Shown: positions 20,447 through 47,765, numbered from the stretch's first letter. The stretch is 64,000 nt of DNA from Candidatus Nomurabacteria bacterium (GCA_023267375.1 JAHFNJ010000005.1:1285-65284), one strand, 5' to 3'. The notes: generated by a model not told the origin, from the sequence alone. Program-made: numbers and translations.

Positions 20447-21187
20447 ATGGATGAGACTCCTATAAAAAAGACAAACTGGAAACTAATATCTATTACAATA
20501 ATATTAGTTGTTATACAAGCAGCACTAGTTTTTTATGGATTTCTTCTTGTTATTTTTAATGGTCTCGATACTTATAGTCCAGAACTCGTTTTTCAGGGGG
20601 CAATTTTTTTACTTATTGCCACAGCCCTACCTATACCATTTGTACGTTCTGCTAAAAAATCAGGATCGCTTTCTATTCTTAGTTTAAACTTGTTTATTAG
20701 CGGAGCAACTGCTTTATTTTTGATAGGATTACTTCTCTCCTCTATTCTAGGTAGTATACAACACCATAAAGAACAAAAAGACTTTCAAAATAAAACTGCT
20801 ATCTATGCAGATGCTGCAAAAATTCAATATGAAAAAATACTAACTGAAACAAATGAAGTAAAAATTATAGGGTGGATGAATAACAATTCAGGAACTAATC
20901 TTTTGCAGACTGACAAGGGTTTCGAAGTCCACTTCAATGATATGTCATATGTACCTGAAGTAGTTGACTATATAAATAAAAACGTAATTGGGCGTACTGT
21001 TGATGTTGTTGTTCCTAGTTTTGTCTCTGAAAGTACAATATTTTTTGTTGATTCTAACGGCGGAGCTACGGATTCCACGATTAATTCAATACCTGTATGC
21101 GGATGTGATCTTAATGTTGATGGTAAAACTCTGACCCCTATTTTATCAAATATGCTACAGCAGCTTTTTAAGGAAGGAAAGTATTAA
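20447..21187 (+). CDS. Hypothetical membrane protein (3-4 TM) with extracytoplasmic C-terminal domain
   Basis: 246 aa. Hydrophobic N-terminal half. Markedly AT-rich (~30% GC) relative to the flanking gyrB and rdgB genes. Confidence 0.5.
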   Translation: MDETPIKKTNWKLISITIILVVIQAALVFYGFLLVIFNGLDTYSPELVFQGAIFLLIATALPIPFVRSAKKSGSLSILSLNLFISGATALFLIGLLLSSILGSIQHHKEQKDFQNKTAIYADAAKIQYEKILTETNEVKIIGWMNNNSGTNLLQTDKGFEVHFNDMSYVPEVVDYINKNVIGRTVDVVVPSFVSESTIFFVDSNGGATDSTINSIPVCGCDLNVDGKTLTPILSNMLQQLFKEGKY

Positions 21188-23600: not shown

Positions 23601-23672
23601 CGCGGGGAGGAGCAACGGTTGCTCGTCGGGCTCATAACCCGAAGGTAGTTGGTTCAATTCCAGCCCCCGCAA
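23601..23672 (+). tRNA. tRNA-fMet (initiator, anticodon CAU)
   Basis: Manual fold: CGCGGGG/AG/GAGC-AACGGTT-GCTC/G/TCGGG-CTCATAA-CCCGA/AGGTA/GTTGG-TTCAATT-CCAGC/CCCCGCA/A. It has the C1:A72 mismatch and three G:C pairs closing the anticodon stem, both hallmarks of the bacterial initiator. It is near-identical to E. coli tRNA-fMet. CCA is not encoded. Confidence 0.85.
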
Positions 23673-23678
23673 CAATTC

Positions 23679-23810
23679 AACAAACCGGTAGGTTTGTGAA
23701 TTTTGCGAGGGGAGTAAGCAAATTGATTTGCTTACGTCTGGAATTGAAAGACTTTTCGTTGCCGAGCTTTGCTCGGTCGAAAAGTACCTGGCTACGTGGT
23801 AGCCAATGAA
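23679..23810 (+). mobile_element. 132-bp insert flanked by a 17-bp direct repeat of the tRNA-fMet 3' end; putative small non-autonomous integrative element or remnant
   Basis: agcccccgcaacaattc occurs at 23662-23678 (tRNA 3' end) and again at 23811-27. The insert contains hairpins caaaccGGTAggtttg, gtaagcaaatTGAtttgcttac, ccgagcTTTgctcgg and ggctacGTGgtagcc. It is homologous to the insert at 59306-59412. Confidence 0.35.
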
Positions 23811-23868
23811 AGCCCCCGCAACAATTCGGCACGTGACATGCCCACTATGTCTATTTGCTGAATAATAT

Positions 23869-23942
23869 GTCGGCGTAGCTCAGGTAGTTAGAGCATGGCA
23901 CTCATAAAGCCAAGGTCGGAGGTGCAAGTCCTCCCGCCGACA
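23869..23942 (+). tRNA. tRNA with anticodon CAU (elongator Met or Ile2-lysidine)
   Basis: Manual fold: GTCGGCG/TA/GCTC-AGGTAGTTA-GAGC/A/TGGCA-CTCATAA-AGCCA/AGGTC/GGAGG-TGCAAGT-CCTCC/CGCCGAC/A. The acceptor stem is perfect. There is one A.A mismatch at the base of the anticodon stem. Confidence 0.7.
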
Positions 23943-24135
23943 CCCGTTTAGGCGGAACAAGCAAATTTATTTGCTTGTGTGAGGACTTGCAAGGCGCAGC
24001 TATACTTTGCCAGTAGGCAAAGTAGCGAGCCGGGGTCGAGAAATTTTGCGAGTGACGGCGAGCAAAATATTCGTGACCAAGTCCTAGAAATTAGAAAATT
24101 TTTCTAATTTGTGGTAGTTTAGAGAAGTTATATTT

Positions 24136-24209
24136 GCGGGCGTAGCTCAGCTGGTTAGAGCGCTCCCCTGTCACGGGAGAGGTCGTGGGTTCAAATCCCA
24201 TCGCTCGCG
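24136..24209 (+). tRNA. tRNA-Asp (anticodon GUC)
   Basis: Manual fold: GCGGGCG/TA/GCTC-AGCTGGTTA-GAGC/G/CTCCC-CTGTCAC-GGGAG/AGGTC/GTGGG-TTCAAAT-CCCAT/CGCTCGC/G. There is one G-U pair in the acceptor stem. Confidence 0.85.
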
Positions 24210-24214
24210 CAATT

Positions 24215-24241
24215 AAAAAATCCCCTTTATGGGGATTTTTT
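24215..24241 (+). terminator. Rho-independent terminator after tRNA-Asp
   Basis: aaaaaaTCCCCtttatGGGGAtttttt: stem AAATCCCC/GGGGATTT followed by a T-run. Confidence 0.7.
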
Positions 24242-24389
24242 AATGCGAGCGAAGCAAGACAACTGCTTGTCTTGCGTTGGGATTTGAACAGCGGAGCTAT
24301 GTTTTACAAGCTTGCAAAACAAGCGAGCTGGTGCCCAGACCGAGCCGAGTGGCGACGAGGCGAGAGTCGCGGGAAAATCCCATCGCTTA

Positions 24390-24433
24390 CACACATAAGA
24401 AAATTCCCATAAAAAGGAATTTTCTTATGTGTG
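24390..24433 (+). promoter_or_regulatory. Perfect 18-bp stem hairpin 35 nt upstream of the AsnB-like gene start
   Basis: CACACATAAGAAAATTCC-cataaaaa-GGAATTTTCTTATGTGTG: 18/18 complementary pairs with an 8-nt loop. No clean T-run follows, so it is more likely a regulatory or protein-binding structure than a terminator. Confidence 0.4.
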
Positions 24434-24468: not shown

Positions 24469-27400
24469 ATGTGTGGCATTACTGCAGTTTTCAATTCTAG
24501 TAACTCAGAATTAAAAGCCAATAAATCTCTAGAAAAAATCCAACATAGAGGAGGTAGTACTTTTGAGCTGGAAACATTTCCAAACGCAACTATCGGCGCT
24601 AATCGTTTGCCTATAGTTGGAAGACTCTCTGGAAAGCAACCTCTCCATAATGAAGACAAGACTATTTTTGCAGTTCAGAATGGTGAAATTTTTAATCATA
24701 AAGAATTACGTGCTGAACTTGAAAAACTGAATCATGTTTTTTCATCTGAATCAGATACAGAGGTTCTCGTGCATGCGTACGAAGAATGGGGATCTGAAAT
24801 GGTATATAAGCTGGATTCGGAGATGTATGCATTTATTGTATACAACACAAAAACTAAAGATATCTTCGCCGCTCGTGATCCACTTGGAGTAAAACCTTTT
24901 TATTACACAAAAACTAAAGATGGAGAAATATTATTTGCTTCAGAGTTGAAGCAGCTAGTGCAATTTGAAAACGTAACTACAGTGAATGAATTTCCACAAG
25001 GTAGCTATTACTTCAATGGAAAATTCACTAAATACTTTAAAATAGAAGATCCAAAAACGAAGCTTTCCGAAACTTCCGCTATTCGTTTGCTTGAAAAAAA
25101 TATTGTTGAGGCAGTGAGAAAACGAGTAGATACAGATTTACCTATCGGTGTCTTTTTAAGTGGAGGAGTTGACAGCTCTCTTGTTATGGAAATCGCGACG
25201 CGTTTTCATCCGGATGTCACTGCTATTATTTTAGGAAATACCGGTTCTTCGGATTATGAATTTGCTCTACGTCTCTGTAAGGACCGTGGATACAAATATC
25301 AGATAGTATCTCCAAATATCGACTATAAACAAGAGCTTGATGAGGTACTCTATTACCTGGAAACATATGAGCCATTGGTGATTCGGCAAGGATTTGCCAA
25401 CTGGATTTGTTCTCGTGAAGCACAGAAGCTCGGCTTGAGCATTGTTCTTGTTGGCGAAGGAGCTGATGAATTGTTTGCTGGATACAATGAGTTTTCTGCT
25501 CTGTCAGATAATAATATAAATAAGGGGTGTAAAATGCTTACTGAAAATCTTGGCAAAGGCCATCTCAAGCGAGTTGATCGTGGGGCGATGCGTTTTACCG
25601 TAGAAGTAAGATCTCCCTTGTTAGATACCAAAGTCATTGATACCGCGTTTAAAATCAAAGGAGATTTAAAAATTAAAAAAGAAAATCATCGTGTTACTAC
25701 AAAATATATTCTTCGCAAGGTGGCTGAAAACTTTCTACCAGACTACATTGCATGGCGCTATAAGATGCCTTTTGCTAATGGAGCCGGAATGAATGTGGGT
25801 TATAACTATAAATCTGGCGATGGTGCGCTTGGAGAAATAACTAAATCATACAAGACTACAATTGATTCAAAAACCGCAAAAGAATTTAAACTCGAAACCC
25901 CAGAAGAGAATTATTACTTCCAAAAGTTTAAGGAATTTGGCTACGCAAAGCTTGCCGAAGCAAAGGACCGAATAATAGTAAAAGACATTCTACAAACCCT
26001 CAATACCTCAAAAAAGCAGAGGATTGTTGTGGCAGAGTTCGGAAAGTTAGCTCTTTATTTTCCTGTATATTTAGCTGCACAAAAGAAAATTTTTGATATG
26101 CATGAGTTGGAGGTTGATTTCATTGCAACTGGTGGCGACGATAAAACATACGCGACCCTGTTGAACAATTCAGGACAAATAGGTCTTTCTGACCCTCTAT
26201 TCGCAATGTTTGAAGACGGAATAAACATGAATGGATACGGTGAAATAATTGGAGAGTTGGTTCACTCAACTCCAATTGTTGCAGTAACACTTAACCCAAA
26301 GATTACTATCAATTCACTTCAGGATTTTTCTCAATATAAGGTTGGATCTTTTCAAAAATACTCCACGACAAACACCGTAGCTTCGTATCTTTTGAAAAAC
26401 CAAAACATTTCTGCCTATGACTTTAAAGAGTTTCCAAGCAAGCTAGTTGATAGAGAGATCGATATCGCCGTAGTACTGCTTGAACAAGCACTTAATATCG
26501 AAGCATTAGGTGGCAGAATCGTACACGATTTTAGAAACGATATGTCTCAATACCTATTTTCTGGTTTTACAATTGCTTCGACGTTACCTAAAAATGTAAG
26601 GGGTAAACTTCCTAGTTTCACTTCAGCTATTAAAGAAGCTTTGAAGTACATCAAATTCAATCAAGCAGATGCTGTTGCTGAATTTAGAGCATTGTTCCCA
26701 GAGTTGATAAACCCAGAAAAAGTATTACTTGAATACCAAAAGTTTTGGGTCCAGAGTCTTAAAATCAACAGAGAAGACTATCTCAAGTCGCACACTACGT
26801 GGAAAAGCTTGTACCCAAACATACTTAAGAATCATGACCTCCCTTACTACCGAAGTTATTCAGACGCAGATAAAATCCTAGATACGATAAATGCCCGGGC
26901 AATTCGTAGAGAATATCCATATCGTGAAGATAAGCTTATTGAACTAATAAATAAAAAAATCAGCACAAAAGAACCACTTACTTTTTTTGGTTTTTGGGGT
27001 GCAGGACCAAAAAAAGATACGGATGATCGCGATAAACGAACCTTGGACTATCTCGCTCAGTACATCTCGAACTTAAACAAAGTATATAAAAATGGAGTTT
27101 CTGTGACTTTTATATTAGCGGACAAGCATGCTGAAAATAACGAGTACGACAAATCAAATATTGGCCCATACATTCAACAAGTAAAACAAGAGATGGCAAA
27201 TCGTGGGTTTAAAACGGTTTTACTGTCCGATATCTGGAAAAAATATGACCTTACCCGCGATAAAGTTGTTTCCACACTTAATTCCAAGCCAAAAGGATGG
27301 TGGCAGAAGATTTCCATTGCAAAAAAACTAGAAGAGAAATCCAATGAATATTTCAATGGAGCTGACAAGTTACTTGGTGCACAGCGCTATTATGTATTAA

Positions 27401-27561
27401 GAGATCTAGAAAAAAGAATACTAAAACAAGAGTATCCGGACTCAATATTCTTTGTATATGGAGACAGTTTTGCCCAGCAAATCTATCCGGATATGCCTAC
27501 TCTGTATTTCTTTACTGAAAAGATCTATTACGGCAATTGTCCTTGGTTTAATCTTGATTAG
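24469..27561 (+). CDS. Asparagine synthetase-like class II glutamine amidotransferase fused to a ~500-aa C-terminal extension (NMT1/THI5-like periplasmic-binding-fold segment plus unknown domain)
   Basis: 1030 aa from the MCGITAVFN start (Ntn Cys2 nucleophile). The PP-loop is VFLSGGVDSSLVM and the AsnB C-domain is ...GEGADELFAGY.... Residues ~560-800 (...IVVAEFGKLALYFPVYLAAQKKIFDMHELEVDFIATGGDDKTYATLLNNSGQIGLSDP...) resemble SsuA/NMT1-type binding domains. The last ~200 aa are unassigned. AT-rich (~35% GC). The track start at 24277 is an upstream extension through the hairpin. Confidence 0.7.
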   Translation: MCGITAVFNSSNSELKANKSLEKIQHRGGSTFELETFPNATIGANRLPIVGRLSGKQPLHNEDKTIFAVQNGEIFNHKELRAELEKLNHVFSSESDTEVLVHAYEEWGSEMVYKLDSEMYAFIVYNTKTKDIFAARDPLGVKPFYYTKTKDGEILFASELKQLVQFENVTTVNEFPQGSYYFNGKFTKYFKIEDPKTKLSETSAIRLLEKNIVEAVRKRVDTDLPIGVFLSGGVDSSLVMEIATRFHPDVTAIILGNTGSSDYEFALRLCKDRGYKYQIVSPNIDYKQELDEVLYYLETYEPLVIRQGFANWICSREAQKLGLSIVLVGEGADELFAGYNEFSALSDNNINKGCKMLTENLGKGHLKRVDRGAMRFTVEVRSPLLDTKVIDTAFKIKGDLKIKKENHRVTTKYILRKVAENFLPDYIAWRYKMPFANGAGMNVGYNYKSGDGALGEITKSYKTTIDSKTAKEFKLETPEENYYFQKFKEFGYAKLAEAKDRIIVKDILQTLNTSKKQRIVVAEFGKLALYFPVYLAAQKKIFDMHELEVDFIATGGDDKTYATLLNNSGQIGLSDPLFAMFEDGINMNGYGEIIGELVHSTPIVAVTLNPKITINSLQDFSQYKVGSFQKYSTTNTVASYLLKNQNISAYDFKEFPSKLVDREIDIAVVLLEQALNIEALGGRIVHDFRNDMSQYLFSGFTIASTLPKNVRGKLPSFTSAIKEALKYIKFNQADAVAEFRALFPELINPEKVLLEYQKFWVQSLKINREDYLKSHTTWKSLYPNILKNHDLPYYRSYSDADKILDTINARAIRREYPYREDKLIELINKKISTKEPLTFFGFWGAGPKKDTDDRDKRTLDYLAQYISNLNKVYKNGVSVTFILADKHAENNEYDKSNIGPYIQQVKQEMANRGFKTVLLSDIWKKYDLTRDKVVSTLNSKPKGWWQKISIAKKLEEKSNEYFNGADKLLGAQRYYVLRDLEKRILKQEYPDSIFFVYGDSFAQQIYPDMPTLYFFTEKIYYGNCPWFNLD

Positions 27562-46037: not shown

Positions 46038-47765
46038 ATGGAAACTCGCAACTGTCAAAACTGCAAAAAAGATTTTACGATCGATCCAGAAGATTTTTCT
46101 TTTTATGAGAAGATAAAAGTCCCACCACCAACATTTTGTCCTGAGTGTAGAAATATACGTAGGACTATTTGGAGAAACGAAAGAACTCTCTATAAGAATG
46201 AGTGCAATCTTTGTAAAAAAGGCATTGTTTCAATTTATTCCCCAGATAAACCATACAAGATTTATTGTGATAAATGTTTTCACGGAGATGGATGGGATCC
46301 TTTTGAACACGGTGTCGATGTAGATTTTACAAAACCATTCTTACAGCAATTTATGGAGTTGCAATTGAAAGCCCCCCGTCTCTATTCTCTTGTTTTCCAG
46401 AATCACAACAGCGAATATGTAAACGGTGCCGCATTCAATAAAAACTGTTACTTGATCTTCGTAAGCGATTACAACGAGGACTCGATGTACTCATATTCTC
46501 TGGTAAAATCGAAGAATACGCTCGACTGTCTCAATTCTTCTGAGTGTGAACTGTGCTATGGGGATATCTCATGTAATAAATGCTATCGCGTTATTTTTTC
46601 AGAGGATTGTCAAAATTCACAAGAATTGATGTTCTGCAAGAATTGCGTCAATTGTAGCGATTGTATCCTTTGTGTGAATCAAAGGAATAAGAAATACTGT
46701 ATAGAAAATATACAGTATACAAAAGAAGAGTATCTGAAAAAGAAGGAAGAATTATATACCGCAAGCAGCAAGAGTTTAGATTTACTGAAGAAGAGATTCA
46801 ATGAATTTAAGAAAGGTTCCATCAATAAATATATTAATGGATTCCAAAACCAGGACGTTTTGGGAAATTTTGTAAATAATTCCAAGAACTCAAAATTTAT
46901 TTTTAACTCTGAAAATGTTGAAGATTCAAAGTATATAAATCATGGCAATAAGATAAAATCTGTTTATGATGCGTACGTTGTAGTCGATGGAACTACTGAT
47001 AGCTATGAAATAGTTTCCGCGATTGCTTTAAATAATGTTATTTCTGGGTATTCTATATGGCATGATTACAATGTTTTCTATTCTGATACTTGCGAGAATT
47101 CAAATAATCTATTCGGTTGCGTCGATTTGAAAAATAAATCCTACTGCATACTCAATAAACAATACACAAAAGAAGAATATGAAAATCTTGTTCCTAAAAT
47201 CATCAAACATATGGAAGAGATGCCTTATACAGATAGATTGGGAAGAACGTATAAATATGGTGAATTTTTTCCAGCAGAATTAACCCCATTTTGCTATAAC
47301 GAAACAATTGCCCAGGAATATTTCCCATTAACTAAAGAACAAGCTTTAGAACAGGGATATGAATGGAAAGATAAAGAAGAAAGAAGTTATAAAATCGATA
47401 TCGCATTAGAACATATTCCAGATGTTATTGAGGAAGTAAAAGATGATATTACCAATAAAATAATAGAATGTGGTCATAAAGGAAATTGTAATCATCAATG
47501 TACAGAAGCATTCAAGATAATTGCTGATGAGCTTAAATTTTATAAAAGAATGAATCTTCCTATACCGCAACTCTGTCCTAACTGCAGACATTACGAACGA
47601 TTGTTACAACGCAATCCTCTGAAACTTTGGCATCGTTCTTGTATGTGTTCCCAAGACAATCATGATCACTCAGGAAATTGTCAAAACGAGTTTGAAACTT
47701 CGTATGCCCCAGATAGACCTGAAAAAGTATATTGTGAAAGTTGTTACCAAAAAGAAGTATTGTAA
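46038..47765 (+). CDS. Cys-rich multi-zinc-ribbon protein of unknown function inserted in the pur operon
   Basis: 575 aa, about 45 Cys. Related N- and C-terminal modules: F.ID.EDF.FY.KI..P.P..CP.CR..R.......L......C.........Y.PD.P..I.YC..C. Internal repeats of CxxC...YC(I/L)(E/L)N.QYTKEEY were found. About 30% GC against ~48% for the flanking purL and purQ. The ATG lies 3 nt after the purL stop. Confidence 0.55.
   Translation: METRNCQNCKKDFTIDPEDFSFYEKIKVPPPTFCPECRNIRRTIWRNERTLYKNECNLCKKGIVSIYSPDKPYKIYCDKCFHGDGWDPFEHGVDVDFTKPFLQQFMELQLKAPRLYSLVFQNHNSEYVNGAAFNKNCYLIFVSDYNEDSMYSYSLVKSKNTLDCLNSSECELCYGDISCNKCYRVIFSEDCQNSQELMFCKNCVNCSDCILCVNQRNKKYCIENIQYTKEEYLKKKEELYTASSKSLDLLKKRFNEFKKGSINKYINGFQNQDVLGNFVNNSKNSKFIFNSENVEDSKYINHGNKIKSVYDAYVVVDGTTDSYEIVSAIALNNVISGYSIWHDYNVFYSDTCENSNNLFGCVDLKNKSYCILNKQYTKEEYENLVPKIIKHMEEMPYTDRLGRTYKYGEFFPAELTPFCYNETIAQEYFPLTKEQALEQGYEWKDKEERSYKIDIALEHIPDVIEEVKDDITNKIIECGHKGNCNHQCTEAFKIIADELKFYKRMNLPIPQLCPNCRHYERLLQRNPLKLWHRSCMCSQDNHDHSGNCQNEFETSYAPDRPEKVYCESCYQKEVL

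Follow-up and report, generated by a model that had tools for sequence, protein, structure and literature searches.

A three-module protein from a Nomurabacteria genome joins an AsnB-type amidotransferase to a binding-protein fold and to a distant relative of isonitrile synthases

A 64,000-nucleotide stretch of DNA from a Candidatus Nomurabacteria bacterium (GCA_023267375.1, JAHFNJ010000005.1:1285-65284), hereafter the window, carries on its plus strand, at positions 24469..27561, a gene whose product is a genuine 1030-residue three-part enzyme. It consists of a module of the asparagine synthetase (AsnB) type, a domain with the fold of periplasmic binding proteins (PBP) and a C-terminal domain (C-dom) distantly related to isonitrile synthases. 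The layout is built from known kinds of domains, and both this architecture and the C-dom subfamily are missing from Pfam and NCBIfam. Taken together, the data are best explained by a trifunctional cytoplasmic enzyme whose modules would act in consecutive steps on a single small substrate resembling an amino acid, a reading to which we assign a probability of about 0.45; the broader proposition, of a small-molecule enzyme with several steps and not a housekeeping AsnB with added domains, seems fairly likely. An earlier note on the window, made from its sequence, had drawn attention to an AsnB-like protein with a long C-terminal extension, an observation that is confirmed here.

The gene is a single open reading frame (ORF), running from the ATG at 24469, with which the protein starts as MCGI, to the TAG stop at 27559-27561, with zero internal stops in the ORF listing and the translation. 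The same three-module layout was found in 14 full-length homologues of 1026-1038 residues. Across 14 fusions from Candidate Phyla Radiation (CPR) bacteria and DPANN archaea, which fall into two groups that are around 45-49% identical to each other, 185 residues are invariant (glutaminase part, 49; synthetase part, 77; PBP part, 36; C-dom, 23). Judging from these residues, all three modules are under selection, the AsnB module being the most conserved (49-65% identity, vs 29-53% for the C-dom). A frameshift or fusion artefact, which the earlier note had named as a possible flaw of the C-terminal region, is ruled out by the uninterrupted frame and by the 14 independent full-length homologues. 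With respect to the start, gene callers in other assemblies have used an alternative ATG upstream, at 24427 in the window, which leads to a protein of 1044 residues; the sequence from this codon reads ATG-TGT-GG, encodes M-C-G and continues in frame (MCGRKYFLSAIILN-MCGI...). Since the other full-length fusions begin without exception at M/V-CGI (13/13), 24469 is the likelier start.

Two particularities of the homologues deserve mention. Some appear as two or three overlapping ORFs whose borders do not coincide with those of the domains (P0007+P0005 in GCA_041447055.1, which overlap by 8 nt, L032/L001, L039, L017 and L050), and these look like frameshifts, resulting from pseudogenization or from assembly or sequencing errors in those records. 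In four others, more distant (P0017, P0026, P0031 and P0032), Trp replaces an otherwise invariant Gly (MCWI, SGWVDSS, WEWADELF), and we read them as coming from genomes where UGA encodes Gly (code 25, of the Gracilibacteria/Absconditabacteria type) that the source database translated with UGA as Trp.

Residues 1-515 constitute, as had been proposed, a complete AsnB-type enzyme. The class-II (Ntn) glutaminase domain (residues 1-200; 24469..25068, plus strand) was delimited with Pfam (GATase_7 at residues 45-164, E 8.8e-38; GATase_7 and GATase_6 together at residues 40-164) and by alignment with the structure of Escherichia coli AsnB (1ct9). It contains the nucleophile Cys2 (24472-24474), along with R46, N71-G72-E73 and D96, which align with R49, N74-G75-E76 and D98 of E. 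coli AsnB and are invariant in 14/14 fusions. The asparagine-synthetase (PP-loop ATP pyrophosphatase) domain follows (residues 201-515; 25069..26013, plus strand), recognized by Pfam Asn_synthase (E 3.9e-48), by the NCBIfam model asn_synth_AEB (TIGR01536, 321.8 bits, above the cutoff of 267.1) and by the 1ct9 alignment, with the motifs SGGVDSS (residues 231-237, 25159-25179) and GEGADELFAGY (residues 329-339, 25453-25485). The equivalents of AsnB E348 and D351, within the GEGxDExFxGY segment, of R325 and of K449 (Lys432 here, 25762-25764) are all kept, and are invariant in the 14 fusions. E. coli AsnB is the best solved relative (E 4.9e-54), followed by human ASNS, and CarA is a far weaker match (2.1e-13). 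The window protein has in common with the two synthetases the N-terminal Cys nucleophile, the glutaminase residues, the SGGxDSS PP-loop, the synthetase residues just listed and the overall two-domain layout; it differs from AsnB in having some 515 extra C-terminal residues, arranged in two further domains, and in its score with the asnB equivalog PRK09431 (360.2 bits), which lies under the cutoff of 499. The claim that about 500 C-terminal residues have no counterpart in housekeeping AsnB holds, because the 1ct9 alignment spans only residues 20-442 of the query and the NCBIfam asnB model extends to residue 491. Given the established mechanism of the family and the intact catalytic residues, this module should hydrolyze glutamine and amidate an adenylated carboxylate.

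The extension had been described as including a PBP-like segment, and this is true of its first half, while the last 240 residues form a separate domain that had been overlooked. The middle module (residues 520-789; 26026..26835, plus strand) has a fold of the NMT1/THI5/SsuA type, identified by PF09084, AlphaFold2 and Foldseek. Pfam PF09084 (NMT1/THI5) matches residues 532-732 with 24.5-28.2 bits (cutoff 20.5), and the match is kept when the middle segment is scanned alone (E 2.1e-6, 28.2 bits). Residues 516-1030, which comprise this module and the C-dom, were modelled with AlphaFold2 from 11 sequences; the mean pLDDT was 87.8 and the pTM 0.83, a value that fits a fixed arrangement of the two domains in the model. 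In the Foldseek search of the PDB, the top match of the PBP module was Thi5 HMP-P synthase (4h6d, E 2.3e-13), and after it came AF1704, SsuA (6.5e-11), the formylaminopyrimidine-binding protein ThiY (3.1e-10), TauA and MqnD. The predicted structure is that of a type-II binding protein, as in Thi5/NMT1 and in SsuA, TauA and ThiY (PF09084, COG0715-type), and being internal to a cytoplasmic enzyme it is cytoplasmic too. Unlike SsuA, TauA or ThiY, it is embedded in such an enzyme and has neither a signal peptide nor transporter genes next to it, according to the window ORFs and to Pfam scans of the flanking proteins, and thus a role as receptor of an ABC transporter does not fit. The strongest signature of the module is TGGDDxTY...IG(L/I)(S/A)DP, with the invariant motifs GGDDxT (26131-26148) and DP (26191-26196), which is also present in a secreted paralogue (P0010); GGDDxT and G-L-S/A-D-P seem different from the Lys/His pair of Thi5.

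The C-dom (residues 790-1030; 26836..27558, plus strand) was delimited by means of AlphaFold2, Foldseek and a family profile, the last 256 residues of the protein having given zero matches in Pfam or NCBIfam. The AlphaFold model of residues 790-1030, obtained from six sequences, was confident (pLDDT 84.4, pTM 0.83) and shows an alpha/beta fold with five strands. When it was compared with the PDB using Foldseek, ranks 1-7 were all occupied by chains of the isonitrile synthases PIsnA (9dhm, 9dh4) and PvcA (3e59), with E values of 6.6e-8 to 1.0e-6 and TMq of 0.57-0.68 (6.6e-8 for PIsnA 9dhm and 1.7e-7 for PvcA 3e59), and a further PvcA chain (3e59_C) appeared at rank 9. At the level of sequence, a profile made from six sequences gave chance-level matches only against solved structures, and a profile of 39 family members was needed; its best PDB match was PIsnA (E 0.0074), with "laDsH..aelNg...Y" aligned to "CSDGHvfGDL...Y", so that D885-x-H887 and Y901 of the window protein correspond to the S-D-G-H segment and the Tyr of PIsnA. 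The Pfam family of these enzymes, PF05141 (DIT1_PvcA), matched 12/39 standalone members of the C-dom family, with a best E of 6.4e-8. A word-indexed search with the family profile returned 5 proteins only, and one family member bears the JGI label "L-tyrosine isonitrile synthase". The Foldseek, PF05141 and PIsnA results are three independent lines of evidence that make the C-dom, a domain without annotation, a distant relative of isonitrile synthases. With IsnA, PvcA, PIsnA and yeast Dit1 (PF05141), its best structural match, it shares the strand-loop-helix and the D-x-H...Y segment, and it differs from them in lacking a Pfam match, in being about 70 residues shorter and in having an invariant set of its own, formed by WG, N891, Y974, E981 and the C-terminal PWF.

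This set stands out in an alignment of 125 diverse members of the family, where the residues conserved in at least 86% of the sequences are W843, G844, D885, H887, N891, Y901, Y974 and E981 and, towards the C-terminus, P1007, P1010, P1025, W1026 and F1027; conservation of H887, N891, Y974 and W1026 is 100%. The motifs of the domain in the window are GFWGAGPK (26989-27012), D885-x-H887-xxx-N891 (27121-27141), followed by Y901, Y974...E981 (27388-27411) and the terminal PWF (27541-27549). Such a conservation pattern is that of an enzyme, with a signature distinct from that of canonical isonitrile synthases.

The search with the family profile, run against 1.84 billion representatives, revealed at least 557 cluster representatives of the C-dom family at E <= 1e-3 and 375 at E <= 1e-10. 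Architectures were typed locally with phmmer in 158 relatives. The C-dom stands alone in 87/158, follows an ANL enzyme (acyl-AMP/CoA ligase) in 36/158 and an AsnB module in 11/158, or 19 when the AsnB + NMT1 + C-dom proteins (8/158) are included; NMT1 + C-dom accounts for 10/158, C-dom + PxpB/KipI-like for 2/158, and AsnB + NMT1 without C-dom for 4/158. The three modules of the window protein therefore combine in all pairs, NMT1 with either of its neighbors, and the C-dom has repeatedly been placed behind two unrelated ATP-dependent carboxylate-activating enzymes, AsnB and ANL, the ANL parts being generic and acyl-CoA-synthetase-like. This suggests that the substrate or product of the C-dom carries a carboxylate in need of activation.

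A scan of species-representative genomes and metagenomes returned 44 loci. Full triple fusions came from an uncultured bacterium (L007), from metagenome-assembled genomes of Micrarchaeota, Pacearchaeota and Woesearchaeota (L008-L010), from a contig assigned to a gammaproteobacterial bin (L014) and from several contigs of metagenomes. Standalone C-doms were present in Saccharibacteria, Paceibacterota, WWE3, Roizmanbacteria and Woesearchaeota. The family has probably spread horizontally in the distant past. The fusion of the gammaproteobacterial bin (CAZUKA010000002.1) has 69% identity to its Pacearchaeota counterpart (L009) and belongs to the DPANN clade instead of the bacterial one, which indicates that either the contig was mis-binned or the gene has recently crossed between domains of life. 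Neither the C-dom of the window nor a member of the proteobacterial type had a tblastn match in 72,556 plasmids, and PADLOC gave no anti-phage defense match for the full protein, the C-dom or the radical SAM protein encoded next to some relatives, which is described below.

How the three modules may work together can be proposed as follows. The AsnB-type module would hydrolyze glutamine at Cys2 and adenylate a carboxylate at the PP-loop site, yielding a carboxamide. The C-dom, with its TyrRS-like Rossmann fold, would bind the amino-acid moiety and use a carbonyl or sugar-phosphate co-substrate to modify the amine of this moiety; isonitrile synthases condense the amine of an amino acid with a keto-sugar phosphate, and from this remote homology the outcome could be an isonitrile- or formamide-type N-functionalization. 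The Thi5/SsuA-like module, packed against the C-dom, may hold the substrate or an anionic co-substrate and serve as a structural hub. The predicted product is an N-modified amino-acid carboxamide, and a precedent for this logic can be found in hazimycin, where isocyanide groups are geminal to amides (PMC13647977). This specific chemistry, i.e. an isonitrile-type N-modification plus a carboxamide, is a tentative proposal, and it is less probable than the general idea of consecutive steps on one substrate.

The protein could also be a housekeeping asparagine synthetase, with the PBP-like and isonitrile synthase-like domains as ligand-sensing, regulatory or moonlighting appendages that adjust asparagine synthesis to the levels of metabolites in an organism with a small genome. 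We consider this possible though rather doubtful. It would agree with the passing score for TIGR01536, the full set of catalytic residues and the higher conservation of the AsnB module, with the gene being alone in the window, without biosynthetic neighbors, and with the presence of a Peptidase_S51 gene after one AsnB+NMT1 relative (8-nt gap), which would fit a role in aspartate supply, as this family includes the Asp-specific dipeptidase E and cyanophycinase. However, the distribution of the C-dom, alone in over half of the typed relatives and behind unrelated acyl-AMP ligases in others, together with its invariant His, Asn, Tyr and Glu, suggests catalysis and not a sensor dedicated to AsnB. 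Moreover, NMT1+C-dom proteins without AsnB exist, such as P0002 (no AsnB-coding ORF is found in the 225 nt to the end of its contig), the score with the asnB equivalog is short of its cutoff, and the operon link of several relatives to a B12-binding radical SAM gene would be unexpected for asparagine synthesis.

A different function for the C-dom was weighed in view of the same structural search, in which many TyrRS chains trail the isonitrile synthases, from E 1.8e-6 (2cyb), and a cyclodipeptide synthase (4q24) appears at 3.3e-4. The domain might act like a class-I aminoacyl-tRNA synthetase (aaRS) or a cyclodipeptide synthase, binding an amino acid or aminoacyl-tRNA and ligating it to an envelope acceptor or to the carboxylate that the fused AsnB or ANL module activates, instead of performing isonitrile-type chemistry. 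Several standalone members are next to aaRS genes (L012, L021, L022), and ANL fusions occur in Dlt-like contexts: ANL+C-dom genes adjoin genes for PP-binding carrier proteins, accompanied by two MBOATs in one case (L027) and by a lipid-A-type acyltransferase (LPLAT) in another (L028). We nevertheless regard this option as unlikely. No HIGH- or KMSKS-like motif was seen in the C-dom by eye, and the catalytic Ser, Tyr and Glu of cyclodipeptide synthases have no obvious equivalents in it. The loop after strand 1, GFWGxGxK/R, resembles by eye the xxFPxKSxN loop of PvcA. The signals at the sequence level favor PF05141 and not aaRS or cyclodipeptide synthase families, and the AsnB module, with its intact glutaminase, presumably uses ammonia as nucleophile and not an amino acid that it binds. 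With respect to the consecutive-step enzyme favored here, the carrier proteins and membrane acyltransferases beside the ANL fusions suggest that the products may end in the cell envelope.

The genes adjacent to the homologues were typed for 13 families, and most neighboring ORFs stayed untyped. Directly downstream of the triple fusion, a gene for a radical SAM protein with a B12-binding domain was found in L007, L010/L043, L036 and L038, with intergenic gaps of 4-15 nt and, in L036, an overlap. Another one is located downstream of a standalone C-dom (L035), and related radical SAM genes flank AsnB+NMT1 genes without C-dom (L006, L029). These proteins have 576-641 residues (L007, 8736-10586; L010, 8758-10488; L036, 6692-8548; L038, 6736-8652; L035, 3256-5181) and matched no NCBIfam equivalog and no PDB relative. 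In the enzyme proposed above, this partner, encoded downstream in many relatives, would be in charge of further processing of the product. That the AsnB-PBP-C-dom protein and the B12-radical SAM enzyme form the core of an undescribed pathway leading to an N-functionalized amino-acid amide, common to CPR and DPANN and probably horizontal in its spread, is a more speculative idea, to which we give a low probability.

B12-radical SAM enzymes are common in clusters for ribosomally synthesized and post-translationally modified peptides, and enzymes of the AsnB family do act in such pathways. The earlier note had suggested a role in peptide or natural-product maturation, of the lasso-cyclase or beta-lactam-synthetase type, with the PBP module delivering a specific acceptor; in this reading, the acceptor would be a precursor peptide. 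The analogy lacks support in several respects: the scores with the lasso cyclase (NF033535, 128.6 against a cutoff of 525) and macrolactam cyclase (NF033561, 28.1 against 300) models are far too low, the PDB match to CarA is much weaker than that to AsnB, and no leader-peptidase or PqqD-like gene was seen among the typed neighbors or in the Pfam scans of flanking proteins. In addition, the ORFs upstream of ten fusion loci showed no mutual homology, so there is no conserved precursor-peptide ORF, nor any other conserved upstream partner, in those loci. We consider this role very improbable; what is left of the suggestion is that the fused module, by its PBP fold, is a plausible ligand binder.

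The surroundings of standalone members are varied. In L018, L019, L020, L021, L052 and L053, plus duplicates, the C-dom gene is immediately followed by a creatininase-family gene (PF02633), a pair that occurs in WWE3 and Roizmanbacteria; the creatininase family includes hydrolases of cyclic amides and formamides. In L024 the C-dom precedes PxpB and PxpC homologues. A Saccharibacteria cluster (L011, 5671-11717) has the order gap-pgk-C-dom-eno-gpmI, with the C-dom in the slot usually held by tpiA, and in a Woesearchaeota locus (L015, 6828-8696) the C-dom comes directly after eno. These glycolytic neighborhoods may hint at a co-substrate from glycolysis, or at a sugar phosphate. The idea of the C-dom as the missing glycolytic enzyme of the tpiA slot seems unlikely, as it fits poorly with the AsnB and ANL fusions, and iPGM is present in that cluster.

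Several observations weigh against the consecutive-step enzyme and its proposed chemistry. The homology of the C-dom to isonitrile synthases is remote: the domain has around 240 residues, compared with about 310 in IsnA/PvcA (TMt ~0.54), and in the window it shows no match to PF05141 even at E <= 10; the matches of other members are for the most part under the gathering score of 26.4 (16.7-20.7 bits in three PF05141-matching members that were sampled), and the family-invariant N891 aligns with a non-conserved position of PIsnA. In the AsnB module, the equivalents of T322/T323, K376 and D384, which are implicated in aspartate handling in E. coli AsnB, are L/V, L and H in the 1ct9 alignment. As for the genomic context, the radical SAM partner is absent by tblastn from the 64-kb window, and no IsnB/PvcB-type iron/2-oxoglutarate-dependent dioxygenase was noticed beside around 45 related loci, though none was searched for. 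Finally, the neighbors of standalone members are a mixture of glycolysis, creatininase-family, PxpBC and aaRS genes, and therefore the C-dom family may not share one chemistry.

In the window, the gene is preceded by gyrB, a Ham1-family gene, thrS and three tRNA genes (tRNA-Met, tRNA-Met and tRNA-Asp, 23601-24210), and followed by an ArsR regulator (HTH_5, 5.4e-14), a LUD-domain gene (1.4e-27) and a large NHL/Big_7 protein; no biosynthetic neighbors were found in the ORF listing and flanking Pfam scans. The tRNA-Asp gene (24136-24210) and a terminator-like GGGG/CCCC hairpin flanked by A/T (24212-24244, plus strand) bound the upstream transcription unit. The 260-nt leader between tRNA-Asp and the start codon has a folding energy of -103.5 kcal/mol (z = -9.4 vs shuffled controls), and contains this hairpin, a second one and, 36 nt upstream of the start, a perfect hairpin (18/18 bp, 8-nt loop; 24390..24433, plus strand) to which the earlier note had rightly pointed, with the alternative ATG at 24427 sitting in its 3' arm. 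There was no Rfam match above chance that would indicate a riboswitch or T-box. Together with the second ATG, the hairpin could control translation or act in attenuation, or it could mark a start of the propeptide type.

The tRNA array itself is repetitive. The same spacer module of about 40 nt, with a hairpin, is found after each tRNA (23711-23750, 23954-23993 and 24251-24290). For tRNA-Asp and the first tRNA-Met it includes a segment complementary to the T-arm/3' end of the tRNA itself (94% for tRNA-Asp, 24274-24289 vs 24189-24204; for the first tRNA-Met, read by eye). These two are also followed by partial direct copies of their 3' ends, at 23804-23827 for the first tRNA-Met and at 24375-24402 for tRNA-Asp, of which a 3' fragment was likewise located at about 24365-24388. 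Such repeats could be signals for processing, copies of tRNAs in decay or scars left by recombination.

The fragment of tRNA-Asp, located 182 nt downstream of that tRNA, had been taken as an att-like site, and the gene, together with the ArsR and LUD genes that do adjoin it, as a horizontally acquired mini-island, which would mean a recent integration at the tRNA-Asp gene. The occurrence of the family in CPR bacteria and DPANN archaea implies horizontal transfer at some time, and the gene is indeed AT-rich, even if mildly so: its GC content is 0.371, the third lowest of 38 window ORFs (0.427 +/- 0.031, i.e. -1.8 standard deviations), and equal across its three modules. Against a recent insertion, the tRNA-Asp fragment lies upstream of the gene and has no second flanking copy, the gene is not flanked by any repeat, and since the first tRNA-Met also has an equivalent fragment downstream (and the spacer module follows all three tRNAs), such fragments belong to the tRNA array as such and do not form an att pair. 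Neither an integrase nor a transposase turned up in the ORFs between 20000 and 32000 or, with Pfam, in seven flanking proteins, the GC content of the ArsR and LUD genes is normal (0.41) and homologues elsewhere have other neighbors. Furthermore, a 62%-identical homologue in GCA_041447055.1, the closest one with genomic context, is likewise some 5 kb from gyrB, which suggests inheritance within the lineage. A recent island is thus improbable. Two ORFs of the window are more AT-rich than the fusion gene, 20447-21187 (GC 0.328; 246 residues, between gyrB and the Ham1-family gene, without Pfam match) and 46038-47765 (GC 0.332), and these are better candidates for foreign or fast-evolving DNA.

With regard to known isocyanide synthases (ICS), a published survey lists just two bacterial architectures, ICS and ICS-dioxygenase, the bacterial proteins being found mainly in Proteobacteria, Cyanobacteria and Actinobacteria, and hybrids of ICS with nonribosomal peptide synthetases (NRPS) only in fungi, where ICS domains are fused to AMP-binding NRPS-like modules (PMC5974471). 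The AsnB-, ANL- and NMT1-fused forms of the C-dom in CPR and DPANN are outside the architectures in that survey, and searches of the literature on PIsnA, on AsnB with isonitrile synthases and on the hazimycin cluster yielded no account of the AsnB-PBP-C-dom architecture. A parallel is CrmA of Aspergillus fumigatus, a fungal ICS-NRPS in which, as in the ANL+C-dom and AsnB+C-dom proteins, one polypeptide joins an ICS-type domain and a module that adenylates carboxylates (PF00501; PMC5974471). Those hybrids are exclusive to fungi, whereas the proteins studied here are prokaryotic and can have an adenylating partner of the AsnB type, with a glutaminase domain. The ICS domain of the fungal hybrids is at the N-terminus, and carrier domains and others of the NRPS type accompany it.

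With their minimal genomes, CPR bacteria and DPANN archaea are believed to produce few small molecules, so that a conserved 1030-residue enzyme, often accompanied by a B12-radical SAM partner, is unlikely to be idle in them. It points to chemistry relevant to their lifestyle, for example envelope modification, metal binding or host interaction. Because domain libraries miss the C-dom, the proteins that carry it are annotated as 'asparagine synthase', 'ABC substrate-binding protein' or 'AMP-binding protein', and establishing the function of one member would extend to the whole family, with its 557 or more representative clusters, and would carry the architectures of the isocyanide synthase superfamily beyond ICS, ICS-dioxygenase and the fungal ICS-NRPS. 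Should the more speculative idea of a pathway with the B12-radical SAM enzyme be correct, this would be the first conserved specialized-metabolite or envelope-modifier pathway of these ultra-small symbionts. The C-dom would then found a new functional branch of the isonitrile synthase superfamily, working with carboxylate-activating enzymes.

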